From NCBI GenBank assembly GCA_005800325.1, contig SYFR01000388.1, positions 1-42,250 on the forward strand: a stretch of 42,250 bases of DNA. Direction: 5' to 3'. This stretch comes from Myxococcales bacterium. Its GTDB lineage: Bacteria > Myxococcota_A > Polyangia > Polyangiales > Polyangiaceae. Positions 3,204-23,681 of this stretch are shown piece after piece. Each line of letters opens with the position of its first letter. Within the stretch, counting starts at the first letter, position 1. A model generated the notes under the pieces. The model worked only from the letters and a program-made list of their open reading frames with translations. It did no database searches and was not told the DNA's origin. Both the position numbers and the translations under genes were made by a program.

Positions 3204-3229
3204 GCCGGCCGCGGATTAGGATCCGTCGC

Positions 3230-4861: not shown

Positions 4862-5802
4862 CGCGCGCTCCGCGGAGCGCGACGATCGGCGTGCTCGGCG
4901 GCGGCCCGTGGGGCCTCGCCCTCGCCAAAGCCGCGAGCCGCGGAGGCGCGCGCGCCGTCCTCTATTCGCGCCGCGTCCCGGAAGATGCGCTGCCCGAGCT
5001 CCACGTGACGCGGGAGCTCGCCGAGCTCGCCGAGGCGCGCCTCATCTTCGTCGCGGTGCCTTCAGAGCTCGCACGACCCGTGTTGCGCGAGCTCGGCGAC
5101 CACCTCGACGGGAGCCACGTTCTCGTCCACGGCGTGCGAGGGCTCGTCGGGGAGGAGCTCGCCACGGTGTCCGACCTCGTGCGTGACGAGACCCCCGTTC
5201 GCCGAGTGGGTGCGCTCGGCGGTCCAGTGCAAGCCGACGAGCTCGACCTTGATCGCCCCTCGGCCATCGTCGTCGCCTCCGAGTTTCGCGAGGTCACGCG
5301 GGCCGTGCGCGCGCACCTCGAGAGCGAGCGCCTCCTCGTGCACGAGAGCCTCGATGTCCGCGGTCTCGAGTGGGCCTCGGCGCTCGTCGGCTGCCTCTCG
5401 ATCGGCGTCGGTTTCGCGCAGGCGCGGCCCGCCGTGTCGCCGGGCATGCTCGCCGCCCTCATCTCGCGCGCCGTGCTCGAGGCCGTGTCGATCGCGCTCG
5501 CGGCCGGCGGGCTCGAAGAGCGCACGTTTTACGGGCTCGGCGGCTATGGCGATCTGCTGGCATCGATGGCGCTGCCCAATCGCCCCGAGATGCTCCTCGG
5601 CCGCGCGCTCAGCGAAGGTTGCGACCTCGCGGGCGCGCGCGCGACTGCCAAGCTGCGTATCGAGGCGATCGAGCTCGTGCCACGCGTCACCGCGTTCGCC
5701 GAGCGACGTGGGCTGCGGTGCGATGTCTTCCGTGCGCTCTCGGCGATCCTCGACGGGACGGCCGAGCCCGCGAGCATCGTGCGGTCGCTGTTTGCCAACT
5801 AA
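4858..5802 (+). CDS. gpsA: NAD(P)H-dependent glycerol-3-phosphate dehydrogenase
   Basis: The N-terminal Rossmann motif IGVLGGGPWGLALA and the GGPVQADEL and GLGGYGDLLAS blocks are typical of GpsA. The ATG at 4858 overlaps the upstream TGA (ATGA). The longer ORF from 4483 is an Arg-rich off-frame extension. Confidence 0.85.
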   Translation: MTRAPRSATIGVLGGGPWGLALAKAASRGGARAVLYSRRVPEDALPELHVTRELAELAEARLIFVAVPSELARPVLRELGDHLDGSHVLVHGVRGLVGEELATVSDLVRDETPVRRVGALGGPVQADELDLDRPSAIVVASEFREVTRAVRAHLESERLLVHESLDVRGLEWASALVGCLSIGVGFAQARPAVSPGMLAALISRAVLEAVSIALAAGGLEERTFYGLGGYGDLLASMALPNRPEMLLGRALSEGCDLAGARATAKLRIEAIELVPRVTAFAERRGLRCDVFRALSAILDGTAEPASIVRSLFAN

Positions 5803-5820
5803 TCGGAGCTCGCTCCGATT
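5801..5820 (+). terminator. Possible stem-loop directly after the gpsA stop, between convergent genes
   Basis: aatcggag-ctcg-ctccgatt forms a perfect 8-bp stem with a 4-nt loop and starts inside the TAA stop. A second 6-bp GC stem (cgccgc-accc-gcggcg) lies at 5826..5841. There is no U-tract, so this is weak. Confidence 0.3.
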
Positions 5821-5868
5821 GCCCGCGCCGCACCCGCGGCGGCGCGAGCACGCGACGCGCTGAACGCG

Positions 5869-6543
5869 CTAGATGCCGCATTCGCTCGCGCACTTGGCCT
5901 GCACGCAGGACACGATGGCCTTCGTCGCGTCGCTGTCGTTCTTCATGGCGCAGTCGGCCATGCACATCGGGTCGCCATTGCAGCCTTGCGCGCACTGGAG
6001 AAACTCGAGGCATTTCGGCTCCGATTGACAGGCCTTGACCTCGTTGCCGCAGTTCGAAAATGCGCACGACTGGCAGTCGCCCTGACCGGAGCCGCCCTGG
6101 CCGCCACCGCCTGCGCCCGAGGTGCCGCCCTGGCACCCCTGAACGCATCCCGCGAGCTTGGGATCCGGCATGCTGCCAAGGATCGACGCGATGGCGGCGC
6201 AATCGGCGTCGAGCACGCACGCCGCCGGGCAGTCGGACGCCGGATCGGCGCAGTCGAGCGCAGGGATCTGCGAGCAGACGTTGCCGAAGCCGCACTCGTT
6301 GGCGAGCTTGTCGCACGCCTGGTCGCAGGTGCTGCCGCCTCCGGTCGTCGACGAGCTCGACGAGGAGCTCGTCACCGCCGTCGTGACCGCCGTCGAGGTC
6401 ACGGTAGCCACCACCATGCCGGGATCGCCGCCGCTGCCGCCCGAGCCGGAGCCGCTGCTCGCGAAGTCCGTCACCTCCGAGCCGCACGCGACGTGACCGA
6501 GGAAGAGAGCCGCAACACCGAGCACCGACAACGAACGAAGCAT
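5869..6543 (-). CDS. Secreted Cys-rich lipoprotein, function unknown
   Basis: MLRSLSVLGVAALFLGHVAC is a signal peptide with a lipobox Cys. A Ser/Thr/Gly linker follows, then a domain with about 22 Cys (hand count). I prefer the ATG at 6543 over 6573. Confidence 0.7.
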   Translation of the reverse strand: MLRSLSVLGVAALFLGHVACGSEVTDFASSGSGSGGSGGDPGMVVATVTSTAVTTAVTSSSSSSSTTGGGSTCDQACDKLANECGFGNVCSQIPALDCADPASDCPAACVLDADCAAIASILGSMPDPKLAGCVQGCQGGTSGAGGGGQGGSGQGDCQSCAFSNCGNEVKACQSEPKCLEFLQCAQGCNGDPMCMADCAMKNDSDATKAIVSCVQAKCASECGI

Positions 6544-6647
6544 GTGTCTCCTCCGCGAATGAGAGCCGCCCACGCACGACGCCAGGCCGGCCCAAGCCGG
6601 ACCTCAAGATACACGGCGGCCCCGAGCAACGGTAGCGCCGCTTGCAG

Positions 6648-9383
6648 TCACCGCGTGCGCGGCGGCCGAAGGAGGGCGATCTCCGGGTCGTCGGGATCGA
6701 GCCGTGAAAACTCGTCGACCACGCGCGCCGCCTCTTCGTGCTGGCCGAGCTCGACGAGCAGGCGGTGAAGCCCGAGCACCGCCGGCCGATGCATCGGCTC
6801 GAGCACCAGCGCGACCCGAAAGCACTGCTCGGCCTCGTGCACGCGGCCGGCCCGAGCGCACGCACGCGCGCCATTCGTCAGGGTCCGGGTCTCCTTCGTC
6901 CCCGGAGACAGCTTGAGGGCTCGCGCAAATGCCGTGACGGCTTCGTCGTTTCGCCCCGCCTCGAAATGCGCCTCGCCCTCGTCGTTGGCGCGATCGATCT
7001 CCGCGGCGTTCGCCATCGCGCGCGCCAGCTCTTCCGCGAGCTTTGCCACGCCCTCGAGGTCGCGGCCCTCATACAAGGCGTGCTCCGAGGCGACGAACCT
7101 CACGAGGCCGAGCCGCCCGTTGTGGTGTTGGTTCCTCATCTCCTCGGCGAGCTTTGCGAAATACGCGGGCCAGCAATTGCCCCACGGGATCTGCGGCGTG
7201 ACGTCGCTCTTGCGCATGAATTCGAGGAGCTTCGGGCGCGAGAGCGCGAGCACGCGGGGCAGGCCATCCTCCGCGATCTCGGCCTCGGGCCGCGTCCGCC
7301 TCTCGTCGCGAATGAGCGCGGTCGTCTCCCGCACGAGCTCGTCGCGGCGCAAGACGCCGACGTTTTCGCCAGTGACGCGGTAGCCGGCGACGAGCGCATC
7401 GAGGACGTGCAGCCGCGCATGGCGGAAAAACCTGAGCCATAGCTCGGTGTCGAACGCGAGCCGATGCGCTGGTTCGACCTTGCCGCCGGCCTGGTCCCAC
7501 AGCCGTCGTCGCCAGTAGGTGCTCTCTTGTTTAATGAAGGGCTGGCCGAAGCCCAGCTCGAGATGCTTCGTGCGCGCGTAGTAGGGGACCTCGACAGCGA
7601 CGCCCGTCAGCATGCCCTCGCTGTCCCACCCCGAGGGCCGCCCGGTGAGCCAATCGAGCTCCGGGTGCTGCTGAAAGGCCCACGCCATCTTCCACAGCGC
7701 CCCCGGGTGGAGCTTGTCGTCCGAGTTGAGCCAGCCCATGACGTCGCCGGTCGAGCGGGCGAAGCCGGCGTTGAGCGCGCTCGCGTGGCCGCCGTCCTCC
7801 GCGCTCTGCCAGTACGAGAGCTCGGTCGCGTGGCGCCGCAGGATCTCGATCGACGCATCCGTGCTGCCGCCGTCCATCACGATGTACTCGAGGTTCGGGT
7901 AGCCCTGCGCGAGCACCGACTGGATGCACTCCTCGAGATAGCGGCCCTGATTGTAGGAGGGCGTGACGATCGTGATGCGCGGGAGCTTGGCCTGGCGCGA
8001 GGTCACGACGCGCGGCGCGCGGGCTCGCAAGGCGGCCATCTCCGGCTCGTCGGGGTCGAAGCGCGCAAACTCCTCGACCACCCGCGCCGCGTCGTCGGGC
8101 CGCCCCGCCCGCGTGTAGAGGGCATGCAGGCAGAGCGCCGCGGACTTGTTCATGGGCGCGAGCTCGAGCGCGCCGCGGGCGTGGCGCTCGGCATCGTCGT
8201 CGTGCCCGAGCGCCGCCACCGCTGCGGCGCAATTTGCGAGCGTCCGCGTGTCGGACTCGTTCGGGCACTTCCCGAGGGCTCTCTCGAAACGCGCCAGAGC
8301 CTCTCGCGCCTGGCCGGCAGCGAGCAGAACGGCACCCTCGTCGTTGAGTCGCGCGCACTCGACCACGCGTGGGAGCACGCCATCACGGGCGGCGCGCGCC
8401 TCCTCCAGGTTCTCGAGCACTTGTCCATCGAAGAGCTCCAGCTCATCCGCGATGAACTGCACGACCTCGTGCTGGCCATCGGCGTAGTTGCCCTTGATGA
8501 GCCCCGTGAGCCCCCAGAAGTAGCGCTCCCAACCGCGGCCCCACGCCGGCGCTCGCTCGAGGCCAAAGTCGCGAGCCAGCGCCACGACTTCGCGGCGAGC
8601 GAGCCGGAGCACACGCGGAAGCGGCGACCGCGGCGCTCGGTCCTCCGCCGCGAGGGCGCGCTCGGCGAGCACGTGCTGGGCCGCGCGCATGCAGAGCTCG
8701 TCGTGGTTGAGCACGGCCAGGTTCGCGCCCGTGATCCGATAACCGCTCAGGAGCGAGTCGAGGATGTGGAGGCGCGCGCGGCGAAAAAAGCGCAGCCACA
8801 GCTCGGTGTCGAACGTCAGCCGCAGCGCGGGGTCGACCTGGCCTCCGGCCCGCTGCCAGAGGGAGCGGCGCCAGAACGTGCTGTCTTGCTGGATGAAGGG
8901 ATTGTCGAAATTGAGCTCGAGGTGCTTGCGGCGCGACAGCTGCGGAAGCTCGGGCGCGATCCAAGCGAGGCGGCCGTCCCCCTCCCAAATCGCGCTGCGG
9001 CCCGTCAGCCACTCGAGCTCAGGGTGTTGCCCGAACATCGCGGCGACCTTCCACAGCGCATAGGGCTGAAGCATGTCGTCGGAGTTGAGCCACGCCATGA
9101 TCTCCCCCGTCCCGCGCGCGAAGCCCGCATTGATGGCGCGCACCTGGCCGCCATCCGGGCAGCTCTGCCAGTACGAGAGGCGCGTCGCGTGCCTTTGGAT
9201 GATGTCGGCAGAGCCATCGGTGCTTCCGCCATCCATCACGATGTACTCGAGGTTCGGGTAGCCCTGCGAGAGCACCGAGAGCATGCACGCCTCGAGGTAC
9301 TCGGCCTGGTGGTACGAGGGCGTGACGATCGTGATCTTCGGCAGCGGCGGGCGCTTCGCGGAGATCGCAAGGGGTGAGGTCAT
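6648..9383 (-). CDS. Double-module family-2 glycosyltransferase: two tandem copies of (GT2 catalytic domain + linker + TPR-like helical region) in one 911-aa polypeptide
   Basis: The two copies are offset by 453 aa. Copy 1 reads KITIVTPSYHQAEYL...YPNLEYIVMDGGSTDGS...WLNSDD. Copy 2 reads RITIVTPSYNQGRYL...YPNLEYIVMDGGSTDAS...WLNSDD. Both C-terminal parts are Ala/Leu/Arg-rich TPR-like helices. Confidence 0.85.
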   Translation of the reverse strand: MTSPLAISAKRPPLPKITIVTPSYHQAEYLEACMLSVLSQGYPNLEYIVMDGGSTDGSADIIQRHATRLSYWQSCPDGGQVRAINAGFARGTGEIMAWLNSDDMLQPYALWKVAAMFGQHPELEWLTGRSAIWEGDGRLAWIAPELPQLSRRKHLELNFDNPFIQQDSTFWRRSLWQRAGGQVDPALRLTFDTELWLRFFRRARLHILDSLLSGYRITGANLAVLNHDELCMRAAQHVLAERALAAEDRAPRSPLPRVLRLARREVVALARDFGLERAPAWGRGWERYFWGLTGLIKGNYADGQHEVVQFIADELELFDGQVLENLEEARAARDGVLPRVVECARLNDEGAVLLAAGQAREALARFERALGKCPNESDTRTLANCAAAVAALGHDDDAERHARGALELAPMNKSAALCLHALYTRAGRPDDAARVVEEFARFDPDEPEMAALRARAPRVVTSRQAKLPRITIVTPSYNQGRYLEECIQSVLAQGYPNLEYIVMDGGSTDASIEILRRHATELSYWQSAEDGGHASALNAGFARSTGDVMGWLNSDDKLHPGALWKMAWAFQQHPELDWLTGRPSGWDSEGMLTGVAVEVPYYARTKHLELGFGQPFIKQESTYWRRRLWDQAGGKVEPAHRLAFDTELWLRFFRHARLHVLDALVAGYRVTGENVGVLRRDELVRETTALIRDERRTRPEAEIAEDGLPRVLALSRPKLLEFMRKSDVTPQIPWGNCWPAYFAKLAEEMRNQHHNGRLGLVRFVASEHALYEGRDLEGVAKLAEELARAMANAAEIDRANDEGEAHFEAGRNDEAVTAFARALKLSPGTKETRTLTNGARACARAGRVHEAEQCFRVALVLEPMHRPAVLGLHRLLVELGQHEEAARVVDEFSRLDPDDPEIALLRPPRTR

Positions 9384-9516
9384 CGTCGCGCGGGCTCATT
9401 GGTCGGGCGCGCGCGCAGGCTGCGTCACGCCGCTCGACGCGGGTGTAGCGGACCGTAGCGCGTCGATTCGTTGGGGGCGACGCCGATTGGCGCCGCAGCG
9501 TGCCGCGCCAGCGGCG

Positions 9517-10812
9517 TCAGGCTCGACCGTCACCGAGGACGAGGGCGCAGTTGTGCCCGCCGAAGCCGGCCGAGATCTTCAGCGCGTACCGAGCGCGAAG
9601 CGGTCGCGGCGCTCCCACGACGACGTCGATCGGACCGAGCTCGGGATCGAGCGTGTCGACGTTGATCGAGGGGTGCGCGACGCCGTCGCGGAGCGTGCAC
9701 ACTACAGTGATGGCCTCGACCGCGCCCGCGCCGCCGAGCAAGTGGCCGAGCATCGATTTCGTCGCCGACATCGGCACCGACGCGAGCCCGTCGCCGAAGA
9801 GCGCGCGCAGCGCCCGGATCTCCGCGGCGTCGCCCGCTACGGTCGAGGTCGCGTGCGGGTTCACGTAGCCGATGCGCTCGGGGCCGAGCCCGGCACGCTC
9901 GAGCGCCTGCCGGCACGCGAGCAGAATGCCGCGCCCGTCCTCGTGTGGCCGCGTGAGGTGCGCGCCGTCGCTGCTCATGCCGTAGCCGCACACCTCGGCG
10001 AGGATCTCGGCTCCGCGCGCCTCGGCGTGGTCCCGCGCCTCGAGCACGAGCGCCCCGGCGCCCTCGCCCATGACGAAGCCCTGCCGATCCGCGTCGAACG
10101 GACGGCTCGCCTTCGTGGGGTCGCCATCGCGTGAGCGTGCCAGCGCCCGCGCATTGCCGAACCCCGCGACGGTGTTGAGGCGCGTGGCGGCCTCGGCGCT
10201 GCCGACGATCATCAGATCCGCCAGGCCGGCTTCGATCATCAAGGCGCCGGTCGCGATGGCGTGCGTTCCGGTCGCGCAGGCGCTCGCGAGGTTGTAGCTC
10301 GGACCCATGAGCCCGTAGCGCATCGAGACGAGCGCCGTGCCGCTGTTGGGCATCACGCCCGGGATGAAGAACGGCGAGACGGCGCGCGGCCCGCGCTCGC
10401 GGCTCTTTTCGATCTGCTGCTCGAAGATGTCGACGGAGCCCTGCCCGGTCGACATGAGACAACCGAAGCGCGTGCGGTCGACCGGCGGCGCGAGCGCCGT
10501 AGCCGTGGCGCCGGGAACGTCCGCGCGGAAGAGCCCGCCGAACCCCGCCATGCTCATGGCCTCGGTCGCCGCCGCGAGCGTGAGCTGCGTGACGCGGCCG
10601 TAGATCTCGGTCTCTTTGCGCGAGAGGAGCCGCTCGCTCTCGAAGCCCTCGACCCTCGCTGCGACGTCGGAGCGAAGCGCGTCGGTCGGAAACTCGCGGA
10701 TGAACGACACGCCGCTCTCGCCGGCGAGCAGCCGTCGCCACGTGGTCGCGACGTCGAGCCCGAGCGGTGTGACCGCCCCCATGCCAGTGACGACGGCGGC
10801 CCGTCCCTTCAT
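9517..10812 (-). CDS. Beta-ketoacyl-ACP synthase II family (FabF/KasA-like elongating KS)
   Basis: Start MKGRAAVVTGMGAVTPLG. The active-site Cys lies in SACATGTHAI, and the His-His pair lies in NPHATST and KSMLGHLLGGAG. The ATG at 10812 overlaps the stop of the upstream desaturase gene (ATGA). The longer ORF to 11136 is an off-frame extension. Confidence 0.9.
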   Translation of the reverse strand: MKGRAAVVTGMGAVTPLGLDVATTWRRLLAGESGVSFIREFPTDALRSDVAARVEGFESERLLSRKETEIYGRVTQLTLAAATEAMSMAGFGGLFRADVPGATATALAPPVDRTRFGCLMSTGQGSVDIFEQQIEKSRERGPRAVSPFFIPGVMPNSGTALVSMRYGLMGPSYNLASACATGTHAIATGALMIEAGLADLMIVGSAEAATRLNTVAGFGNARALARSRDGDPTKASRPFDADRQGFVMGEGAGALVLEARDHAEARGAEILAEVCGYGMSSDGAHLTRPHEDGRGILLACRQALERAGLGPERIGYVNPHATSTVAGDAAEIRALRALFGDGLASVPMSATKSMLGHLLGGAGAVEAITVVCTLRDGVAHPSINVDTLDPELGPIDVVVGAPRPLRARYALKISAGFGGHNCALVLGDGRA

Positions 10813-11621
10813 CGCTGCGGACGCGCCTCGAGCGCAGCGCGCTGCGCGGAAAGCATCTCGTGGCGGCCGATGTTCAAGAACTTGAGCACCGGGAGGTAGA
10901 TCTTGCGAATGAAGAGATCGCGGTCGACGCTGCCCTCCGAGCGCATCTTGAGGATCCGCTCGTCGTAGTCGGGCACGAGGTCGACGCCGGGCATCTTGAA
11001 ATTGGCAAACACGAAGGCGAGGTCGGCGAGCGTGCCGGCGCGATCTTCCTCCAGCAGGGCCTCGGAGACGGCCTGATAGAAGCGCGTGTGCGCGATCTCG
11101 TCGCGAGCGATGTAGTCGTAGATCGAGAACAAGCACTCGTCGCCTTCGCGCTTCGCGTAGTCACGGTGCTTGCAGTAGATGACGAACGTCGCCTGCTCTT
11201 GAACGACTCCGTAGAGCGTCATCTGGCGCGCCGTCGTGAAGGGCGTCTCCCAGCGCTTCTCGGAGAGCGTGCGGTAGAGCTCGATCATCTGCGTGCGCGT
11301 CCGCTTGCCGGAGCGGACCAGGTACTCCCCGAGCGCCAGGGAGTGCTTGCTCTCTTCGTAGCCCCAGTTGGCCTGCCACCACGCGCGGCCGAACCAGTCG
11401 CGCACGACGTTGATGCCGCCCGCGACGTAGTCGGGCAGGTACATCTCGACCGAGGCGAACGTCTCCGCGCAGAGGGCGAGATCCTCGGGCGCGTCCGGGT
11501 TCACCTTGTCCCACGGAATGTCGTCGAAGACGCTCCAGCGCCGCTCGCGCTCGGCCTTCTCGAAAAACTCCATGTACGTGCGGTAGAGCCGCTCTTCGAG
11601 GTTCGTCGTCGGGTGGGCCAT
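10809..11621 (-). CDS. Soluble di-iron acyl-ACP desaturase family protein (DesA-like, ~270 aa)
   Basis: Two EXXH di-iron motifs (GYEESKHSLA and ARDEIAHTRF) plus candidate single Glu ligands (CAETFASVEMYLPDY, VVQEQATF). Size and layout resemble the soluble stearoyl-ACP desaturase / mycobacterial DesA family. Confidence 0.7.
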   Translation of the reverse strand: MAHPTTNLEERLYRTYMEFFEKAERERRWSVFDDIPWDKVNPDAPEDLALCAETFASVEMYLPDYVAGGINVVRDWFGRAWWQANWGYEESKHSLALGEYLVRSGKRTRTQMIELYRTLSEKRWETPFTTARQMTLYGVVQEQATFVIYCKHRDYAKREGDECLFSIYDYIARDEIAHTRFYQAVSEALLEEDRAGTLADLAFVFANFKMPGVDLVPDYDERILKMRSEGSVDRDLFIRKIYLPVLKFLNIGRHEMLSAQRAALEARPQR

Positions 11622-11728
11622 GGGTCAATCCTCGCTTCGGGGAGCTCGCGCGCCGCTCGTTCGTGCTCGCCGTTCGGCCGAGGCCGCTAGCGTCAGGCGA
11701 GTCGACGTTCAGCCGAGGGGGCTAGGCC

Positions 11729-11971
11729 TCAGACGAGCCGACGCTCGACGCGGCTGCAGAGGTCGCCGACCGTGACGATCTCGACCAGATCTTCGTCCGG
11801 GATCTGGATGCTGAGCTCGGTCTCCATCTCACCGACGATCTGCATCATCGAGAGGGAGTCGACGCCGAGGTCGGTGATGACGCTCGCGCGCGTGACGTCG
11901 TCGAAGCTGCGCTTGTCCACGCGCGCGGCGACGGTCTTGAACATGGGGAGGAGGTCGTGCTTGTCGGTCAT
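11729..11971 (-). CDS. Acyl carrier protein (stand-alone, 80 aa)
   Basis: The phosphopantetheine attachment motif LGVDSLSMMQIV is present, the size is typical for ACP, and a GAGGAA Shine-Dalgarno sequence lies about 6 nt upstream of the ATG. Confidence 0.85.
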   Translation of the reverse strand: MTDKHDLLPMFKTVAARVDKRSFDDVTRASVITDLGVDSLSMMQIVGEMETELSIQIPDEDLVEIVTVGDLCSRVERRLV

Positions 11972-12006
11972 TTCAATTCCTCACTAAGAAACTCGTGGTG
12001 CCGAGC

Positions 12007-12864
12007 TCAGGCATCCAGGCGCCGCAGCTCATACTGCGCGAGCGAGCTATAAAACTGGTCGAACGCGCGAACGCAAGTCGAGAGGTACCGGTCGTAGTCG
12101 TCGAAGACGTGGTCGCCCCACTCTTGGCGAATGCGCGCCTCGTGGAGGCGCATGCGGCGCAGCCACTCGGCCGTCGTGCGCTCGTAGTCGTGGCGGCGCT
12201 GCTTGACGGTGATGATTTCCCAGTAGGGGTTCACCGCTTGCACGATGTCTTCCAGGCGCGGATTCAGGCCGCCGGGAAAGATCACGTGCGTGCAGAAGTA
12301 GATGTCCTCGAGGTCCTTCTTGATGCGAGGGATCTTGTTGCGAAGGATCGTCTGCAGACCGAACCAGGCGCCCGGGTTCGTCACCTCGTGGCACTTCTTG
12401 AAATACGCGCGATAGATGTCGATCGCCTTGCCCTTGCGCGCCTCCTCGGGGGAGCAGAGGTGGTCCAACATGCAAATGGAAACGAGGGCGTCGAACTTCT
12501 CGGTCGTCTCCCATTTCATGAAGTCGGACTCGACGCACTCGACGCCGGGGAGCTTGCGGCGATTGACCTCTTCGGCCTGCGAGCTCGAGAGAGTGACGCC
12601 CACGGCGCGCTTCACGCTGCGCGACGTGGCGAGGTACTCGAGGCAGGCGCCCCAGCCGCACCCGATGTCGAGCACGCTCTTGTTCGCGGTGACCTTGGCG
12701 AAGTCGCTCAGGATGGAGAGTTTGTTGAGCTGCGCCGCCTCGAGCGACTGGTGCTCCGACTCGAACACGGCGCACGTATAGTTCATGCGCTCGTCCAGCC
12801 AGAGGCGGAAAAACTCGTTGGAGACGTCGTAGCTGACTTCGACCTCTTGCTTGTTGGATCCCAT
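12007..12864 (-). CDS. Cyclopropane-fatty-acyl / mycolic-acid synthase family (CMAS) SAM-dependent methyltransferase
   Basis: SYDVSNEFFRLWLDERMNYTCAVFE matches the CMAS N-terminal signature. VLDIGCGWGACLEYL is the SAM-binding motif I. The length of 285 aa is typical of the family. Confidence 0.8.
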   Translation of the reverse strand: MGSNKQEVEVSYDVSNEFFRLWLDERMNYTCAVFESEHQSLEAAQLNKLSILSDFAKVTANKSVLDIGCGWGACLEYLATSRSVKRAVGVTLSSSQAEEVNRRKLPGVECVESDFMKWETTEKFDALVSICMLDHLCSPEEARKGKAIDIYRAYFKKCHEVTNPGAWFGLQTILRNKIPRIKKDLEDIYFCTHVIFPGGLNPRLEDIVQAVNPYWEIITVKQRRHDYERTTAEWLRRMRLHEARIRQEWGDHVFDDYDRYLSTCVRAFDQFYSSLAQYELRRLDA

Positions 12865-12906
12865 GAATCGCTCCTCGGTTACGAACGTGTACGAGTGGGT
12901 AAGGGC

Positions 12907-14637
<1,731 letters not shown>

Positions 14638-14720
14638 CGGGCCTCCCGTGCCGCCGTGGCAGGCGGCCGGATAACACTGCGGGCGTCCTCTAGGCGAATT
14701 TTGGGCCAACGGGAATAGCG

Positions 14721-14810
14721 GCGATCAATCCAGAATAATTTCAATCATGTAGAGTAGAAACGCCGTTCGCGTGTCGAAAATTCGACACACCTGTGTGACC
14801 AAACTTCGAC
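14721..14810 (-). promoter_or_regulatory. AT-rich island (about 44% GC by hand count) upstream of the FAAL gene containing operator-like inverted repeats; probable promoter/operator of the lipid cassette
   Basis: gtgtcgaa-aa-ttcgacac (14771..14788) is an 8-bp inverted repeat. A cacac-ct-gtgtg repeat overlaps it at 14785..14796. TTCGACA is repeated at 14781 and 14805. On the minus strand TTGAAA lies at 14739..14744. No -10/-35 assignment is made. Confidence 0.4.
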
Positions 14811-14830
14811 AGGTGCCGCGGCCGCCAACG

Positions 14831-14948
14831 CAGGTGCGCTCAAGCGGCCGGCGGCGCGGGGATCGGCGGGAGCGCCCCGTTCGAAGAGCGGCGCGCGGCT
14901 CGCGGCAGGTGCGCTCAATCGGCCGGCGGCGCGGGGATCGGCGGGAGC
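14831..14948. repeat. 43-bp direct repeat (1 mismatch) with a 75-bp period; copy 2 is the 3' end plus stop codon of the lipoprotein gene and copy 1 lies in the downstream intergenic region
   Basis: Copy 1: 14831..14873 caggtgcgctcaaGcggccggcggcgcggggatcggcgggagc. Copy 2: 14906..14948 caggtgcgctcaaTcggccggcggcgcggggatcggcgggagc. Confidence 0.9.
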
Positions 14949-16024
14949 TCCTCGGCCGCGTAGCTGCGCGCGAGGCTGCTGCCGACGCCGGCACCGCTCG
15001 GGCTCGGCCCGAGGTAGACCTGCTCGGCCGTGAAGCTGCCTGAACCGCGGAGGACTCCCTCGTCATCCCGCGTCCACGCGGACTGGAGGTTGATGGCCTT
15101 CACGGTGATCGGCGGGCTCTGTACGACGACGTCGACCGGGAGGTTGCCGAACGAGTAGCCGCCGCCCTCGCTGTCGGTGACGCAGCCACGCACCGTGAAG
15201 CTATAGCCGGTAGGCGGCTCGAAGTTGGCAGAGAAGTCGACGTACCCGTCCGCCCCGCTCGTCTTCTCGGAGGGGGGGACGCACGCGGGCTCGGGATAGG
15301 TTCGGCACGCCTCGGTATCCTTGCAGGAGAGTCCGAGCGTCGAGCAATCGAGCGCGGGGTTGCGATCGCCGTTCGTGAACTGGCCGACGAAGTCTCCGGA
15401 GTCGGGATCGACACGGATGTCGGCGAGGAGCTGGATTTGCGCCGAGACCGGCTTGTCGACGTCGACCAGAAAGAAGTACGTGCCGCGCTCGGGAAAGGTG
15501 GTGGGCTTGACCTGGTCGCCGCAGCTGAAGGCGAAGCCGAACTTGATGATCTGGCGTACCTTCCAGGCGCGGCCGGCGTCGTCGGCGAGGCCCGAGTCTA
15601 CGACGAGCGCGAGCTGCGGGCCCACGGGCATCGTCTTCGACAAGGTGGCCGTGAAGACGCGCCTCGCTTCGTCGAGCTGCCCGAGTCCGCCCTCTTCGGT
15701 TTCGGGGTCCGAGCGGAAGAGCACGTCGAGCTCGGTCGCGGCATCCTCGTCCTGGTCGAACAGCCGGCCCTCGCCGTCGGTCTCGTATACGACGAGCTTG
15801 AACGCGAGCGACTCCGGCTTGATGGGCTCGCTGAAGGTGACCGTGAACGGGGCCGTCGGGTCCGGGAGCTGCCCCTCTACGAGGCCTTCGATCGCGACCG
15901 CCGGCGGCGCGTCGAAGGGGTCGCAGCCGGCGAGGGACAAGGCCGTGGCGAGGATGCAGGCACCGAGCGATGCTCCACGATGGGCGCCCCGCGTCGACGA
16001 GGCAAATGGGTAAGTGAAGATCAT
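14915..16024 (-). CDS. Lipoprotein, function unknown (possible Ig-like N-terminal domain)
   Basis: A signal peptide ends in the lipobox LSLAGC. The segment FTVTFSEPIKPESLAFKLVVYE resembles SbsA-type Ig-like domains (unverified). The C-terminal part contains several Cys. Confidence 0.65.
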   Translation of the reverse strand: MIFTYPFASSTRGAHRGASLGACILATALSLAGCDPFDAPPAVAIEGLVEGQLPDPTAPFTVTFSEPIKPESLAFKLVVYETDGEGRLFDQDEDAATELDVLFRSDPETEEGGLGQLDEARRVFTATLSKTMPVGPQLALVVDSGLADDAGRAWKVRQIIKFGFAFSCGDQVKPTTFPERGTYFFLVDVDKPVSAQIQLLADIRVDPDSGDFVGQFTNGDRNPALDCSTLGLSCKDTEACRTYPEPACVPPSEKTSGADGYVDFSANFEPPTGYSFTVRGCVTDSEGGGYSFGNLPVDVVVQSPPITVKAINLQSAWTRDDEGVLRGSGSFTAEQVYLGPSPSGAGVGSSLARSYAAEELPPIPAPPAD

Positions 16025-16098
16025 GGGCAGTCTCCGAAGCGGGCAGTGGGACGAGCTCGTAGGCAGTCAGCGAAGAGCAACTCGGCAGAACACATTGC

Positions 16099-17733
16099 TC
16101 AGTAGTAGAACGTCGTGCGGCCCTGAAGGAGGAAGCTGTTCACGGCGTCACCGTTCGCGTCCTCTAGCGCGTCTCCGGGGAAGAAGACGGCGCCTTCGAC
16201 GTCGAGCGCGAAGTGGTCGGCGAAGCGCCACTGGGCGCGACCGTCGAGCTCCACGCCGTAGAAGCTGCCGGGCTTGCCGCCGACGAAGTTCACGAGGTCG
16301 TCGTCGATGACAGCGCCGTCGCGCGCCTGGAGGCACGCGACCGGATCGACCACGGGGGCGGGCGCCCACGCGACGAGGACGCCGCCGCGGAGGAGCACCG
16401 ACTCGTGCGGCCGCACGTCGACCTGAGGAAAGACGGCGAAGGCGTCGGTGAAGGCGCCCATCGTGTCGACGCGCTCGGACGGAAACTTCGTCGCGCCGAG
16501 GCGCCTTGTAATCTCGGTGCCCGCGGACGACGCGCGCGCCGACTGCAGGCGCAGCACGTGCTCGAACATCAAGAGGCCGACGTTGTTGTCCTCGGCCCAA
16601 CGAAACTGGGTGAGCGGCGTGCTGGCCTGTGGGTCGCCGTCGCCGGATGCATAGTCCGTCTCGAGGTAGAGGCTGAAGAGCGGCTGGTCGAAGCGTACGA
16701 CCGCGCGCGCTCCGATTTGCCGGATCTCTTGCGCGACGACCGGATCGTTGTTGATGACCGCGTACGCATCGCTCACCTCCATCGTCTCGCCGAAGTTTCC
16801 CGCGACGTCGAGGCCGGCGCGCACCGGTCCGAACGTCGCCCAGACCTTTCCGCCCACCGTGTGAATGAGCGTCTCGTAGCTGGCATTGAAGCGATGTGCG
16901 TAGAAGCTCATGACCTCGAGGTCCGTTGCGACGCCGAGCTCCGGCAACGAAAAGAGCACCGCCGCCGCGACCTGATTGACGTCGTCGTCGTAGAGGATCG
17001 GACTGTCGGTCACGTAGCGGTCGTACATCGCCGCGACGCGCAGCCCCTCGTCCTCGCGCAGGTTGCGCTCGCTCTTCTCCTTGAACGCCTCGGCGGGCTT
17101 GGTCGCGAAGAGCACGCGGTCGACGCTGTCGCCGGCATAGGCGATGCCGAACCGGTTCTTGCGGCCGTCGCCGTCGGTGTTCTGCACGCCGAGGCCGATC
17201 CCCACTGCTTGGCGTCCGACGCGGAGCACGCCAATCGGCGTATTGACCTGTCCGAAGAGGCGGCGCACCGAGATCGCGTCGGCCTCGCAGAGCCCGAAGC
17301 CGTAGCCGCTCGGGGAGAGCGGGTCGCCGCCCTCGCGCAAGCGTATGCAAGGCTTGACGACGTTCGGATCGCGCGTCGATACCTGGAGCCCGCCGTTCGA
17401 TGAGGGGTCGCCGCCGAACGTCCCGTTGTCGCCGAAGAGAACGCCATCGAGGACGTCGAGCGAGGCGGTGAGCTTGACCTTCTCTTCGAAGTCGATGGTC
17501 CCACCGAAGCGCCCGCGGTGCTCGATGACTGCGTAGTTGCGCTGCGACTCCGTGTTCAGCGAGATGGGATCGACGTAGGTCGCCTGCGCGCGGTACTCCG
17601 CGTCGGCGACGACGCCCACGGCGCCGACCTCGTGGCGAACACCCGGCTTCTCCGGATCGGGGTCGGCCCATGGCTCGACCGCACGCGCCGGCGCCGTGAG
17701 GAGAAAGACTGAGATGGGTAAAGCTCTGCGCAC
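16099..17733 (-). CDS. Putative outer-membrane beta-barrel protein
   Basis: Signal peptide MRRALPISVFLLTAPARA. The protein is 544 aa with many Gly/aromatic alternating stretches, and the C-terminus GRTTFYY ends in an aromatic residue, as is typical for OMPs. I do not recognise a family. Confidence 0.6.
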   Translation of the reverse strand: MRRALPISVFLLTAPARAVEPWADPDPEKPGVRHEVGAVGVVADAEYRAQATYVDPISLNTESQRNYAVIEHRGRFGGTIDFEEKVKLTASLDVLDGVLFGDNGTFGGDPSSNGGLQVSTRDPNVVKPCIRLREGGDPLSPSGYGFGLCEADAISVRRLFGQVNTPIGVLRVGRQAVGIGLGVQNTDGDGRKNRFGIAYAGDSVDRVLFATKPAEAFKEKSERNLREDEGLRVAAMYDRYVTDSPILYDDDVNQVAAAVLFSLPELGVATDLEVMSFYAHRFNASYETLIHTVGGKVWATFGPVRAGLDVAGNFGETMEVSDAYAVINNDPVVAQEIRQIGARAVVRFDQPLFSLYLETDYASGDGDPQASTPLTQFRWAEDNNVGLLMFEHVLRLQSARASSAGTEITRRLGATKFPSERVDTMGAFTDAFAVFPQVDVRPHESVLLRGGVLVAWAPAPVVDPVACLQARDGAVIDDDLVNFVGGKPGSFYGVELDGRAQWRFADHFALDVEGAVFFPGDALEDANGDAVNSFLLQGRTTFYY

Positions 17734-17742
17734 GGCCCGACC

Positions 17743-18294
17743 CTACTTCCGATCGGGCTCGACCGCACCATGCCGTAGCCGAAGCTCTCTGCGACGTGCG
17801 GCGAGCTCGAGCCTCTGGTCGCGGCGCACCACCGCCTCGTCCCAGCGGAGCCGCTCTTCGGCGGTCTCGGCCACGAGGCGCGGGACGGCCGAGGGGCGCC
17901 CCTGTTCGTCGAGCGCGACGAACGTGAGGTAGGCGCTGACGGCGTGCGTGCGTGCGCCGGTGAGCATGTCCTCGGCCTCGACGCGGACGCCAATCTCCAT
18001 CGAGCTCTTGCCGACGTAGTTGACGAGAGCGCGCAAATTGACGAGCTGCCCCGCGCGAATGGGCGCCAGGAAATCGAGCTGGTCCATCGACGCGGTCACC
18101 ACGGCGCGGCGACTGTGACGCTGCGCCGAGAGCGCCGCGCAGACGTCGATCCAGCCCATCACGGTGCCGCCAAACGCCGTGCCGTGCGCGTTCGTGTGCT
18201 GCGGCATGACGATCTGATTCATCTCGACCGCGGTGTCCGAAGGGCGCCTCGCCGACGCGTCGGGCAGCGGGCTCTTCGTCGGGAGCGCGCTCAT
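17743..18294 (-). CDS. Hot-dog fold acyl-CoA thioesterase (YciA/BFIT-like)
   Basis: VMPQHTNAHGTAFGGTVMGWIDVCAALSAQRH...VTASMDQLDFLAPIRAGQLV...GKSSMEIGVRV matches the acyl-CoA hydrolase hot-dog pattern. The ATG at 18294 overlaps the upstream stop (ATGA). The ORF extension to 19275 is off-frame noise. Confidence 0.8.
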   Translation of the reverse strand: MSALPTKSPLPDASARRPSDTAVEMNQIVMPQHTNAHGTAFGGTVMGWIDVCAALSAQRHSRRAVVTASMDQLDFLAPIRAGQLVNLRALVNYVGKSSMEIGVRVEAEDMLTGARTHAVSAYLTFVALDEQGRPSAVPRLVAETAEERLRWDEAVVRRDQRLELAARRRELRLRHGAVEPDRK

Positions 18295-19229
18295 TGGGGC
18301 GACTCGACCGGAGCGCACGTCGACACGCCCGCACCGACGATTCGCATCCCGGTGTCGGGGATGTACGCGGTATCGACCGTGCCGTCGGAGGGGCGATAGC
18401 GATTCACGCGCGAGTTCGTGAAGCTCGCGGTGTAGAGATAAAAATCCCCGCCCCAGAACGAGAAGGCATACGCGTTCGGCACCTCGACCGTCGGCAAGGG
18501 GACGTTGCTCAGCGCGCCGGCGTTGGTTTTTCCGAGCTCCGCGACGACGACCGGTGACGTCGTAAAGAAGCCGAAAAGGCGCGCGTCTCCGGTGCCCGTG
18601 AGCTCCGCGGACTTGCCCGTGAGGCCTCCGGTGAAATTGCCTACCGGCTCGAGGACCTTGCCGTTGATGCGGCCAAGCTGCCCCGATGCGATGCCGGCGA
18701 CGAAGAGCGTCTCGGCGTCGGTGTCCACTGCGTCGCTCGAGAATCCCATTCCCAAGCGAGCCCAGGCGCCCGGGAGCTGCACGGCCGGCGCCGACTCGCA
18801 GGAGAGGTTCGCCAGATCGACGCGGAAGATCGCGCCTTGGAGATCGAACCCGTCGACGTAGTTGACCCACGCGACCGCGTCGCGCGAGACCGCCATCGAG
18901 TTCGGGAGCAGCCGAGTCGGGCAGCTCAGGTTCCCGAGCTTCGTGAGCTTCTTGTCCAATGGCGCGAAGCTGTAGATCTCGTTCGCGTCGGTGAGCAGGT
19001 AGACGAGCTTCGCGGCCTCGCTGCAATCGCTCGGGGTGCCGCTCGCGGTGCTCGTTCCGCCGCCGACTCCGGCCGTCAACGAGACGTCGCCACCGGCCCC
19101 CGTGTCGCCGCCGCCGACGTCGCCACTCCCCGTCGTCGAGGTTCCCGGCGGATCGTCGAAGTTGCTGCGCCGCGCTGCGGAGCACGCGACGCCGAAGAGG
19201 AGGAACGCGCCAGCCAGTCGTCGGTTCAT
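18291..19229 (-). CDS. Lipoprotein, function unknown
   Basis: MNRRLAGAFLLFGVAC is a lipobox signal. A Gly/Thr/Ser linker follows, then a ~240-aa globular part. The ATG is at 19229. The remainder of ORF 18291..20414 upstream is Arg-rich and overlaps the neighbouring gene. Confidence 0.7.
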   Translation of the reverse strand: MNRRLAGAFLLFGVACSAARRSNFDDPPGTSTTGSGDVGGGDTGAGGDVSLTAGVGGGTSTASGTPSDCSEAAKLVYLLTDANEIYSFAPLDKKLTKLGNLSCPTRLLPNSMAVSRDAVAWVNYVDGFDLQGAIFRVDLANLSCESAPAVQLPGAWARLGMGFSSDAVDTDAETLFVAGIASGQLGRINGKVLEPVGNFTGGLTGKSAELTGTGDARLFGFFTTSPVVVAELGKTNAGALSNVPLPTVEVPNAYAFSFWGGDFYLYTASFTNSRVNRYRPSDGTVDTAYIPDTGMRIVGAGVSTCAPVESPQ

Positions 19230-19339
19230 GCGGGTTGTACCTGGCCCGCATCCTACGTGCTGCGCCGGCCGACAAGAAGGGGCGTCATCAAGCGCGGCCG
19301 AGACGACAGCGGCCGAAACCGCTCTTCGAGTTGCCGACT

Positions 19340-20623
19340 TCAGCAGCCGGCCAGGAGGTCGCGAGCGAGCTCCGGCAAGCCGCCGAGCGCCTCGGCGACG
19401 CTCAGCGCCGCCTCCACGAACAGCAGCGTGAGCGAGATGCGTCCGGCGTGTCGCGTCGCGATCACCTGAAATCCTGGGGGCACGAGCACGGCGGGGACGG
19501 TGAAGGCATCCGTGACCGGGCGGCCGCCGAAGGTCGCGAGCTCGAGCGCTCCCGGGTTCGAGAACACGAACGAGCCGCGCTCGCCGCCGAAGGGGCGGCG
19601 CATCCCGTAGCTCTAGAGCGGAGCCGGGAGCCTTCGTGTGACCGAGAGCGCCGCGACCATCGCGACGTCGAGCTTCTCGCGCACGAGGTCCCGCCGCTGG
19701 GCGGCGAGGCTCTCCACGGCGCGGCGCTCGTCGAACAGCGCGTCGCGGTCGAGCTCGAGCATCATCATCGACAGGTTGTTGCCGAACATGCGCGCACGCT
19801 CGACCTTGGAATCGAGCGATACCGGGACGTGAACGAGGTAGTGGATCGGGCAGAGCGACCGCCGCAAGAGCGCGCGATCGAGCATGCGCGCCGAGGCCCA
19901 CAGGAGCACGCTCGTGTCCGAGAGGCTCGCGCGTTTTCGCAGCGACGCGGTGAACGCACGCGACTCCGACTCCGAGAGGCGCAGGCGCACGGCCCGCATC
20001 GCGCCCGGTTCGCGAGCCGCCGCCGGCCCGCACGCGCTTACGACCGGGCGGCGCGCCAGACGCATGACGTGCCGGAAATACCGGCTCGCGAACGCGTGGC
20101 GCTCGCGCATGCCCGCCGGGAGGAGCTCGTCGGAGGTCTTGGTGCGAAGCTCGCGAGCCGGAAGCGGTTCGTTGAGCGCCGCGCCGAGCGACGCGACGAG
20201 GCGGTTCGCGCCGTGCGCGTCGGTGAGCGGATGCAGCCACCGAAAGACAACGTGGTCGTGCCGCTTCCCGCGCAGTACGTGGAGCTGCCAGGTGGCCCTC
20301 GGCGGGAGCGGCTCGCCGATGAGCCCCACCGCAGCTTCGAGCAGCTCGGACTCGCCGTCGAGGTCGCTCGTGGTGACGAGCAGGCGCGACGCGCCGGGGG
20401 CTACCTGCTTCCACACCGGCGCGAGCGTACGGTCGAGCGACGGGTAGCGGCGCAGCTCGTCCATCCCATCGTCGAGCGCCCGCACGCGGCGGTCGAGCGC
20501 CTCGAGCTCGAGCCGACCGTCGAGCGCCAGGGCCAACGCGCAGTGGTTGCCCGAGAAGCCAGCGGCGCGGAGCTCTTCATGCCCGCGCAGGTGAAAGACG
20601 CCGACCGCACCGAGGGAAGTCAC
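19340..20623 (-). pseudogene. WS/DGAT- or condensation-domain-like acyltransferase interrupted by a single in-frame TAG (336-aa N-part, stop, 3 codons, 87-aa C-part)
   Basis: The N-part contains WLHPLTDAHG (an HXXXD acyltransferase motif). ORFs 19613..20623 and 19340..19603 share a frame, joined as ...RRLPAPL*SYGMRRPFGG... The C-part FSNPGALELATFGG resembles the WS/DGAT C-terminal NVPGP block. Confidence 0.5.
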
Positions 20624-20668
20624 AGGGCCCGTGTGTGCGGTAGCACGGCCGGCGCTGCGGTTGGTCGT

Positions 20669-23038: not shown

Positions 23039-23096
23039 ACGAGTGCCACGGTACCGAGTGTGTCGCAGATGGCCTAAATAGTGACGCGAGAAACTG

Positions 23097-23681
23097 TCAC
23101 GAGCCGCCACGCGACTCGCCCGCCTCGTAGAGCGGCACGACGCGCGTCGTCGGCGGGATCTCCGGATGCGACACGTCCTCGCGCACGAAGACGATGTCGG
23201 TCGGCCGGATGCGATCGACTCGCCAGTTGATCGCGATCTCTTGTGCGTCGGTGCCGCCGGTGCTCACGAACTCCGCACGACCGACGAAGTCGCCGGTGTA
23301 CACGACCCAGCCGAAACCGGTCGCGTCGTCGAGCAACGCCCGTCCCTTCGCTCCGGAGATGAGCCCGACGAGCTTGAGCTCGTCCAGCGAGTACTGCGCG
23401 GCCTTCACCTTGCGCTGGTTGACGGCCAAGATGTCGTCCGTCGGCTTTTTGAAGAGGCTCGTGTAGTCGCGGAACGGGTCGCGCGCCTCGTCCGACTCCA
23501 CGAAGTCCGCCTCGATGAACTGAGCCCCGCTTTGGGCCTCTTCTTGTGACTTTTCTTCGGCTGCCGCGGCCGACGCGCTCGCGGCGGGGGCTCTCTCACC
23601 GAGGGACGGATCGACGGTCCCGCCTTCGCACCCGAAGGCGCCCGCGGCGAGGAGGGTCATGAACACGAGCGGTCGCTTCAT
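23097..23681 (-). CDS. pilP: Type IV pilus assembly lipoprotein PilP
   Basis: MKRPLVFMTLLAAGAFGC is a lipobox signal. The gene sits between pilO and pilQ, and its ATG at 23681 overlaps the pilO stop (ATGA). Confidence 0.75.
   Translation of the reverse strand: MKRPLVFMTLLAAGAFGCEGGTVDPSLGERAPAASASAAAAEEKSQEEAQSGAQFIEADFVESDEARDPFRDYTSLFKKPTDDILAVNQRKVKAAQYSLDELKLVGLISGAKGRALLDDATGFGWVVYTGDFVGRAEFVSTGGTDAQEIAINWRVDRIRPTDIVFVREDVSHPEIPPTTRVVPLYEAGESRGGS

Follow-up and report, generated by a model that had tools for sequence, protein, structure and literature searches.

The 42,250-nucleotide contig SYFR01000388.1 of a Myxococcales bacterium (family Polyangiaceae; assembly GCA_005800325.1), referred to here in its entirety as the window, carries on its minus strand a run of about 15 kb (5869–20623) made up of genes for lipid enzymes and envelope proteins, and the question raised by this locus is whether the run is a single biosynthetic unit. 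A first-pass annotation, made from the letters alone, had proposed that it is, as one dedicated locus for an outer-membrane (glyco)lipid. Our analysis favours a different answer. The run, which follows pilMNOPQ, is probably a mosaic of modules with separate inheritance and only one conserved functional unit among them, a five-gene operon (9517–14637; the cassette) with its own sigma-54-like promoter and palindrome. The cassette encodes a fatty acyl-AMP ligase (FAAL), a methyltransferase of the cyclopropane synthase (CMAS/CFAS) family, an acyl carrier protein (ACP), an acyl-ACP desaturase-like protein and a ketosynthase (KS). The other genes of the run, for an outer-membrane barrel with its lipoprotein, a thioesterase, an acyltransferase, a double family 2 glycosyltransferase (GT2) and a Cys-rich protein, are likely to be neighbours of this operon and not members of it.

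As the window has a G+C content of ~70% over its 42 kb, raw lists of open reading frames (ORFs) were mostly noise; coding frames were chosen by third-codon-position GC, the translations were then inspected, and domains were assigned with Pfam and NCBIfam. The gene list and minus-strand order given by the first-pass annotation, from the acyltransferase to the Cys-rich lipoprotein, were confirmed in this way. Its minus-strand block also stood, although not the placing of its beginning at 20623, as co-direction extends further upstream through pilQPONM to 26156. Within the block, genes on the one strand are separated by -4 to about 280 nt. Taken by itself, co-direction says little about linkage; judged by conservation across genomes, beyond-chance clustering is limited to the five-gene core.

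The distribution of the genes was examined in a survey anchored on the desaturase, in which an alignment of 20 homologues yielded 80 species-representative loci (L001–L080) with 10 kb on each side; all window proteins were mapped by tblastn onto related loci, of which there were 93 overall. Forty-two of the 80 were classed as Polyangiaceae-like (desaturase at least 64% identical) and the other 38 are more distant. The ACP was present in 41 of the 42, the methyltransferase in 40, the KS in 39 and the FAAL in 36, with contigs that end inside the cassette accounting for the missing genes; the KS was found in none of the 38 others. By the same count, the lipoprotein gene at 14915–16024 was present in five loci, the barrel in four, the thioesterase in three and a 312-amino-acid lipoprotein in one. 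Neither the acyltransferase nor the protein combining two GT2 domains with a tetratricopeptide (TPR) region was detected in any of the 42, or in any of the 80 desaturase-anchored loci. The KS is followed directly by the converging gpsA gene in L002–L004 and in the metagenomic contigs L082 and L083. In two high-GC metagenome-assembled genomes (MAGs; L041 and L043), an ACP-desaturase pair directly follows aspartyl-tRNA synthetase.

A second survey, anchored on the barrel, gave six contexts (L088–L093), none of which had a full cassette beside the barrel. In L088, L089, L092 and L093 the barrel and its partner lipoprotein occur alone in unrelated surroundings. L090 has, in order, an intact acyltransferase, thioesterase, barrel, lipoprotein and Cys-rich protein, followed by gpsA/GPAT/M17_N/EAL, with neither cassette nor GT2 gene at this locus. 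L091 (GCA_039027095.1, JBCCLB010000002.1, 11070–16429) has pilOPQ, then further along the thioesterase, then the barrel, lipoprotein, ACP (81% identical), KS (65%) and Cys-rich protein; a protein kinase gene and an opposite-strand gene for 482 amino acids lie between its ACP and KS. It is because its pieces are independently distributed in related genomes that we regard the block as a mosaic. The first-pass annotation had itself named such a break-up as counting against a single dedicated 15-kb locus, and under this synteny comparison such a locus is not supported.

The spacer between the lipoprotein and FAAL genes was aligned with its counterparts in L001–L005, revealing two conserved non-coding elements. 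The first, TGGCCCAAAATTCGCCTA, has a single match in the 42-kb window. Its consensus, cCTGGCcCGaatTTCGCTTA, has invariant TGG and TTCGC elements, spaced as in the sigma-54 consensus TGGCACG-N4-TTGC. In 35 of 41 loci (0.013 expected), the form TGG-N7-T[TC]CGC occurs no more than 300 nt upstream of FAAL. Each of 33 Polyangiaceae loci of 20 kb has the strict form of the motif just once, in every case upstream of FAAL and irrespective of the gene that lies before it. The second element is the palindrome TGTCGAAAATTCGACA, present once in the 42-kb window (0.01 expected); a degenerate version, GWCGNANNTYCGWC, lies upstream of FAAL in 31 of 41 loci (0.007 expected), 66–125 nt further upstream than the promoter motif. 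Neither motif recurs before other genes of the window. This attachment of conserved motifs to the region upstream of FAAL alone shows the cassette, as far as can be read from such sites, to be a self-contained transcription unit whose sites are not shared by the other modules. The FAAL start is probably the ATG at 14637 and not the TTG at 14709, because the latter overlaps the conserved promoter-like element. Scans of 5700–20800 found no sigma-70 promoter and seven sites resembling intrinsic terminators (6.6 expected), and searches of the whole window with Rfam at gathering thresholds and for tRNAs found nothing.

The spacer also carries one half of a 75-bp tandem duplication (14830–14897 versus 14905–14972; 87% identity), by which the 3' end of the lipoprotein gene (14915–16024), ~19 codons with the stop, has been copied to a position just upstream of the palindrome. 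This may be a recombination scar at a module junction. A repeat search for mobile-element scars found no flanking repeats around the cassette or the GT2 gene.

The cassette is not confined to this surrounding. In Sorangium cellulosum So ce56 (L033) the five genes lie together at NC_010162.1:3407764–3412950, with the promoter motif at L033 6955–6972; upstream are an aspartokinase gene and a gliding-type ABC system, downstream DUF255, OmpA, rnpA and yidC, and none of the envelope or sugar genes of the window occurs in these flanks. The upstream gene in metagenomic relatives is AraC in one and AtuA/DUF4387 in another. In other phyla, a FAAL-CMAS-(ACP)-desaturase set has the same order in the cyanobacteria Nostoc, Aliterella and Pelatocladus, in Acidobacteriota and in Thermoanaerobaculia, and a permuted order in Methylobacter and a Burkholderiales MAG. 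These cross-phylum loci form one clade of the desaturase tree, with desaturase-only Chloroflexota, Elusimicrobiota and Armatimonadota as the outgroup. The position of the KS is taken in other phyla by an alpha/beta hydrolase or an Aas-like acyltransferase. The distant versions have as neighbours patatin/NTE phospholipase, alpha/beta hydrolases, an Aas-like fusion of AMP-binding, phosphopantetheine-binding and acyltransferase domains, a membrane desaturase and a fatty-acid hydroxylase; the first three of these suggest a role in lipid acyl-chain turnover.

One cyanobacterial example, in Nostoc sp. C117 (L057; CP170991.1, 6619–15529), is preceded by a large multi-PAS/GAF histidine kinase gene and followed by genes for a membrane fatty-acid desaturase, a fatty-acid hydroxylase, a zinc alcohol dehydrogenase and an alpha/beta hydrolase. 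Methyl-branched lipids of cyanobacteria that are so far unexplained may be connected with it. One of them, 7-/8-methylheptadecane, derives from vaccenate and S-adenosylmethionine (SAM); the methyltransferase involved was still unidentified in 2014 (PMC3903477), and the cyanobacterial cassettes are candidates for encoding it.

Each of the five cassette proteins was assigned to a family from its domains, motifs and best structural matches. The FAAL has FAALs as its best PDB matches (3pbk, E 7e-100; FadD23/FadD32, ~1e-63 to 1e-77), compared with only ~1e-37 for acyl-CoA synthetases (FACS) in the same comparison; its top NCBIfam models are FAAL subfamilies, all with scores below the trusted cut-offs, and its homologues are 576–580 amino acids long. 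The ACP, encoded two genes downstream, has the DSL phosphopantetheine site within 'LGVDSLS'. In the desaturase, the diiron ligands E53, E90, H93, E142, E175 and H178 are invariant in 20 homologues. The 20 best PDB fold matches of its AlphaFold2 model (pLDDT 85) are all acyl-ACP desaturases (TM about 0.7, E down to 3e-6), and the protein is ~70–90 residues shorter than the plant enzymes and similar in size to DesA2. By sequence and modelled fold it belongs with this family, and desaturase activity is predicted. The start of the KS gene overlaps the desaturase stop by 4 nt. The KS has PF00109 and PF02801, and 'ASACATG', 'HATST' and 'GHLLGG' (Cys/His/His) can be read from its translation; it scores 438.8 with NCBIfam PRK07314 (KAS II; cut-off 387) and 459 with the fabF equivalog TIGR03150, below the cut-off of 493.75.

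The methyltransferase was informative in what it retains and what it lacks. PF02353 covers its full length, the SAM motif 'DIGCGWG' is present, and the best PDB matches are UmaA, CmaA2 and MmaA2. It consists of the catalytic domain only, aligning to residues 108–373 of 5z9o and 120–360 of 6bqc, both phospholipid cyclopropane fatty acid (CFA) synthases (E about 1e-22 to 1e-25 for this domain); it does not have their ~100-residue N-terminal domain and falls outside the phospholipid-acting group. Five bicarbonate ligands (E. coli C139, E239, H266, I268 and Y317) are strictly conserved in non-plant cyclopropane synthases (PMC3132707). The window protein has C, D, Q, I and Y at these positions, so that Cys, Ile and Tyr are kept and the strict five-ligand pattern is not. 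The change of His to Gln is found in all cassette-linked copies ('GLQ[TSAH][IV]'), that of Glu to Asp in Polyangiaceae only, and an exhaustive search showed Gln in 122 of the 135 informative nearest methyltransferase representatives (Q-type). Cotton cyclopropane synthase (CPS) has the same H-to-Q change together with a C-to-S change (PMC3132707), and we therefore rejected the substitution as an argument excluding cyclopropanation. As judged from the alignments, Gln marks a subfamily and does not separate cyclopropane from other outcomes. Among the near relatives, P0252, P0259, P0261 and P0264 (about 580–614 amino acids) have two tandem CMAS-type domains, and P0308 (2988 amino acids) has a Q-type copy embedded in a large protein.

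Taking the protein families and folds, intact catalytic motifs, gene order, promoter region and independence from neighbours as found, we infer the reaction steps as follows. The FAAL would adenylate a free, salvaged long-chain fatty acid and load it onto the dedicated ACP, and the diiron desaturase would introduce a cis double bond into the acyl-ACP. The methyltransferase would then add a SAM-derived carbon to this double bond on the carrier, giving a cyclopropane or a methyl or methylene branch. In Polyangiaceae, the KS could condense the tailored acyl-ACP with malonyl-ACP and so pass it through the housekeeping type II fatty acid synthase (FAS II) to membrane lipids. A cycle of salvage, modification and reinsertion would agree with the lipid enzymes (phospholipase, hydrolase and Aas type) that adjoin the cassette in other phyla. 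We think there is a good chance that the autonomous operon acts in this general way, by desaturation and then methylenation of a salvaged fatty acid on its own ACP, with product and destination as predictions. A broader version is offered as a tentative suggestion: that the cassette is a horizontally spread pathway for mid-chain cyclopropane or methyl-branched fatty acids, made on a carrier protein from salvaged acids and, in Polyangiaceae, controlled by a sigma-54 activator and returned to FAS II through the cassette's own KS. Activation, tailoring and elongation of an acyl chain, which the first-pass annotation had ascribed to the entire 15 kb, can be retained for the centre of the block (FAAL, ACP, desaturase, CMAS and KS). 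Its branched or cyclopropanated chain is still the natural prediction from this enzyme set, although the outer-membrane glycolipid destination is not sustained.

Several points weigh against an autonomous acyl-tailoring operon. The unit is not absolute: the L091 site is without FAAL, methyltransferase and desaturase, and L041 (9738–10825) and L043 (9741–10801) have the ACP and desaturase only. In L001–L005, and partly in L091, the barrel-lipoprotein pair is directly upstream of the cassette, so that in the sub-lineage of the window there may be a lineage-specific functional link between the two. The activator-dependent sigma-54 promoter is a reading of a motif match only. The outcome of methyl transfer is uncertain, as the residues at two bicarbonate-ligand positions are not those of bacterial cyclopropane synthases (Gln for His, Asp for Glu). 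Which product is made, with what regiochemistry, and what the KS contributes are predictions throughout. Finally, no ketoreductase (KR), dehydratase (DH) or enoyl reductase (ER) is encoded, and elongation would for this reason depend on housekeeping enzymes.

How far do these points favour other explanations? The adjacency in L001–L005, the single strand with its short gaps and the complementary functional categories would all be expected if the whole of 5869–20623 were one locus after all, in which a modified acyl chain is made, esterified or glycosylated, and exported to the outer membrane via the barrel and lipoproteins. We nevertheless regard this as very improbable, given that the GT2-GT2-TPR protein and acyltransferase are missing from all 80 desaturase-anchored loci, that the acyltransferase gene has a nonsense codon, that the barrel pair is cassette-free in four contexts and the L090 backbone has no cassette, that the cassette stands alone in Sorangium, and that its promoter region is its own, with motifs not repeated before other genes.

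Two further alternatives accept the cassette as a unit and assign it another purpose. It could provide the starter unit of a specialised metabolite, such as a lipopeptide or polyketide, that is put together by genes at another site in the genome, in the manner of FshA/E/F or JamABC. A FAAL with a stand-alone ACP and a tailoring enzyme is typical of such systems (PMC13548996), and one Q-type methyltransferase representative is part of the 2988-amino-acid protein; we consider this unlikely, however, as the annotated flanks contain no polyketide synthase (PKS) or non-ribosomal peptide synthetase (NRPS) gene, the cassette is at a syntenic, core-gene-like site in all Sorangium species representatives returned, its neighbours in other phyla are lipid enzymes of phospholipase, hydrolase and Aas type, and its partner in Polyangiaceae is a FabF-type KS. 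There is also a small probability that the cassette is an aerobic route to unsaturated fatty acids built on the desaturase and an elongating KS, with the FAAL for recycling and the methyltransferase as a minor or stress-induced accessory like E. coli Cfa. De novo synthesis of unsaturated fatty acids needs no dedicated FAAL and ACP, the methyltransferase is conserved like the desaturase (40/42 loci, 66–93% identity) and is encoded between FAAL and ACP, and the sigma-54-like promoter suggests conditional expression. These points argue against such a route despite the desaturase/KS overlap, which suggests translational coupling, the ACP-desaturase pairs without FAAL or methyltransferase in L041 and L043, and the H-to-Q change shared with active plant cyclopropane synthases, which makes ordinary cyclopropanation plausible (PMC3132707). 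An autonomous operon for carrier-bound acyl tailoring accommodates these observations best in our judgement.

Coordinates of the cassette, its control elements and the surrounding genes in the window
Feature	Position	Strand	Basis
FAAL	12907–14637 (ORF list: 14709)	-	AMP-binding, E 1e-67
CMAS/CFAS-family SAM methyltransferase, 285 aa	12007–12864	-	PF02353, E 2.5e-55
ACP, 80 aa	11729–11971	-	PP-binding, E 1.3e-11
Soluble diiron acyl-ACP desaturase-like protein, 270 aa	10809–11621	-	PF03405, E 1.5e-18
FabF-like KS	9517–10812	-	Ketoacyl-synt N and C domains
Sigma-54-type -24/-12-like element TGGCCCAAAATTCGCCTA	14691–14708	-	Motif match, 54–71 nt upstream of FAAL ATG
Perfect palindrome TGTCGAAAATTCGACA	14772–14787	.	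Putative activator/operator site, 64 nt upstream of -24 element
pilM-pilN-pilO-pilP-pilQ, complete type IV pilus operon	20669–26156	-	Pfam/translation
Acyltransferase-like gene	19340–20623	-	Frame analysis and translation; interrupted by TAG
312-aa lipoprotein	18291–19229	-	Translation
4HBT/YciA-like thioesterase	17743–18294	-	4HBT, E 2e-18
AlgE-like outer-membrane barrel, 544 aa	16099–17733	-	Alginate_exp and TIGR04551 matches
Lipoprotein, LAGC lipobox	14915–16024	-	Translation
GT2-GT2-TPR protein, 911 aa	6648–9383	-	Pfam
Cys-rich secreted protein or lipoprotein, 224 aa	5869–6543	-	23 Cys
GPAT (PlsB-like) and gpsA, converging on the minus-strand run	3116–5802	+	Pfam

The flanking modules each have a history of their own. 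The barrel scores 24.3 bits with Alginate_exp (PF13372), just under the curated cut-off of 25.2; it has 626 homologues, and most among the matches listed carry a precomputed PF13372 annotation. Its constant partner is a lipoprotein of about 360 amino acids, and there are no alginate genes nearby. On these comparisons the two (14915–17733) are a separate conserved envelope pair, which adjoins the cassette only in L001–L005. The thioesterase occurs in L001, L003, L004, L090 and L091 with variable spacing; apart from a weak match in L088, the 312-amino-acid lipoprotein was found in L001 alone.

The acyltransferase gene has an in-frame TAG at 19613–19615 that divides it into an ORF of 336 codons (19613–20623) and one of 87–90 (19340–19612). 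Intact homologues have Tyr, Phe or Met at this position. Only eight homologues (312–464 amino acids) were found among 5.8 billion proteins, of which six span the position of the stop and cover 92–99% of the merged query. Read-through or recoding of the TAG was rejected because TAG terminates six other genes in the window; the copy in the window would be a nonsense mutant, and so a probable pseudogene, or a sequencing error. The merged protein had no Pfam match at E<0.01 and none to the N-domain (WES_acyltransf), and a single-sequence PDB search with it gave no meaningful match. WS_DGAT_C is weak (E 0.066 in the window, 9e-6 at best in the family, with weak matches in three members), and the motif 'LHPLTDAHG' is HxxxD only, not HHxxxDG. 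The family profile matches the N-terminal HxxxD region of chain 8s6l (E 2.4e-6), which the sequence file calls phthiocerol dimycocerosyl transferase (PapA5) and the structure library AzeD dehydratase. The model of homologue P0125 (pLDDT 70) finds its matches among condensation-superfamily folds, at E about 1e-12. From profile and model, the protein is placed only at the level of the condensation/PapA5/WS_DGAT_C superfamily. The earlier description as a WS/DGAT-like acyltransferase is therefore kept for the superfamily, with its condensation fold, and not for WS/DGAT membership or an intact ORF. Its homologues never adjoin the cassette; their sites are downstream of pilQ (L084) or unrelated (L086). 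Either the acyltransferase or the thioesterase-barrel region comes after pilQ in relatives too (L084, L091), which makes the backbone a conserved pilQ-downstream region.

The two GT2 halves contain an internal repeat (7335–7634 versus 8694–8993; 68% DNA identity, 1359 nt apart), which indicates an internal tandem duplication. No orthologue of the GT2-GT2-TPR protein was found in any related locus, and by this comparison it is a lineage-specific insertion between the KS and Cys-rich genes. The Cys-rich gene is semi-conserved, with weak orthologues in L005, L009, L014, L015, L081, L090 and L091 that lie downstream of the KS or beside gpsA.

Converging on the run from the plus strand are genes for a response regulator with an EAL domain (RR-EAL), a thiamine pyrophosphate (TPP) enzyme, an M17_N-like protein, a PlsB-like glycerol-3-phosphate acyltransferase (GPAT) and gpsA; the PlsB-like acyltransferase, gpsA and TPP enzyme reported by the first-pass annotation are present according to Pfam. 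The five form a conserved co-directional block in relatives (L082, L083), and L090 has this block without the cassette. We rejected the adjacency of GPAT and gpsA as evidence of a glycerolipid destination, as this block is part of the local backbone, is cassette-free in L090 and is absent near the Sorangium cassettes. The M17_N-like ORF (2646–3203) and the GPAT ORF (3116–4861) overlap by ~88 nt as listed, and the true GPAT start is for that reason probably further downstream. The rest of the window (26000–42250) is unrelated to the block, with genes for a LysM/M15 peptidase, Hsp33, a GDSL-like protein, DUF4178, a spermidine-synthase-domain protein, an esterase, a PSCyt3/PSD2 protein and the C-terminal part of glycine dehydrogenase.

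In this way a smaller, testable object takes the place of the speculative 15-kb 'glycolipid locus': a five-gene operon with conserved regulatory sites that occurs in the genetically studied S. cellulosum So ce56 and, as a four-gene version, in several other phyla. Should the proposed function be correct, bacteria would have a second route to cyclopropane or methyl-branched fatty acids, operating on acyl-ACP and not on phospholipids, and the logic of mycolate tailoring would be found outside actinobacteria. The Q-type methyltransferases would then be candidates for remote alkyl-chain functionalisation, and there would be a genetic handle on mid-chain-methyl lipids whose methyltransferase is unidentified, such as the cyanobacterial methylheptadecanes. 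A general lesson is that in large high-GC genomes, co-direction and complementary annotations are not evidence of a gene cluster.

It remains to place the cassette among known systems. A full-text literature search, with most subscription journals outside its reach, found no description of the cassette or of myxobacterial acyl-ACP desaturases. The cassette is so far uncharacterised; an acyl-tailoring core is supported, and a 15-kb unit, a glycolipid product and outer-membrane export are not. The aryl-polyene and flexirubin loci resemble the window run in having a KS, ACP, adenylating enzyme, thioesterase, methyltransferase, GT2 and envelope proteins on one strand. However, among their markers 5869–20623 contains one KS and one ACP only, and the Pfam results for this region show no KS/chain-length-factor pair, KR, DH, ammonia-lyase, LolA-like protein, RND exporter or second ACP. 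The likeness arises from reading unrelated neighbouring modules as one cluster. The first-pass annotation, which drew this comparison, had likewise claimed no match.

The phospholipid-acting Cfa of E. coli, CFAS of L. acidophilus and plant CPS have a catalytic domain homologous to that of the window methyltransferase, which differs in being encoded with its own FAAL, ACP and desaturase. In the actinobacterial BfaA/BfaB pathway, oleic acid is converted to 10-methyl stearic acid (PMC5660069), and the title of that report names no dedicated ACP or FAAL. This pathway is like the proposed route in that a methyl branch arises from the action of a SAM methyltransferase on a mid-chain double bond; it needs an FAD oxidoreductase partner, and none is encoded in or beside the window cassette.

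The system that comes closest in its set of enzymes is the meromycolate toolkit of mycobacteria (FadD32 FAAL, AcpM, KasA/KasB, DesA1/DesA2 and CmaA/MmaA/PcaA/UmaA), which draws on the same five protein families. The window desaturase model resembles DesA2 (TM 0.77 normalised by DesA2), the FAAL matches the FadD32, FadD23 and FadD28 families, and the KS matches the KasA/KasB model below its cut-off. The mycobacterial methyltransferases that act on carrier-bound chains likewise align only to the catalytic domain of CFA synthases, and by this analogy tailoring in the cassette is presumed to take place on a carrier-bound chain. Unlike the dispersed mycobacterial genes, those of the window form one compact operon, in a Gram-negative Myxococcota host; there is no Pks13, no FAS-II reductase or dehydratase gene and no very-long-chain machinery, the methyltransferase has Gln for the bicarbonate-ligand His, and identities are at family level only. 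The JamABC and TtuABC terminal-alkyne cassettes follow a logic like that of this cassette, with an acyl-ACP synthetase or FAAL, a dedicated ACP and a desaturase acting on the carrier-bound chain; unlike this cassette, they use membrane-bound desaturases of the FADS type, which form terminal alkynes, and have neither methyltransferase nor KS.

The fischerazole system of Fischerella comprises FshA (FAAL), the ACPs FshE and FshM, and FshF, a CFAS-family methyltransferase that acts on a FAAL-loaded, ACP-tethered unsaturated acyl chain and forms a vinyl branch by rearrangement (PMC13548996). According to its authors, FshF has many uncharacterised homologues in several phyla (PMC13548996). What it has in common with the cassette is a free-standing ACP loaded by a FAAL and served by a CFAS/CMAS enzyme, a likeness drawn from its published description, and we propose methyl transfer at the carrier level because of this precedent on an ACP-tethered unsaturated chain. 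It differs in that the fsh desaturase is of the membrane type and that the fsh cluster, with halogenases, PKS and NRPS, makes a lipopeptide. With its different type of desaturase, its Q-type methyltransferase and no PKS/NRPS or Pks13, the cassette is not a member of the meromycolate, Fsh or JamABC systems; by analogy, it is the Fsh and JamABC cassettes that would come closest to it in logic.

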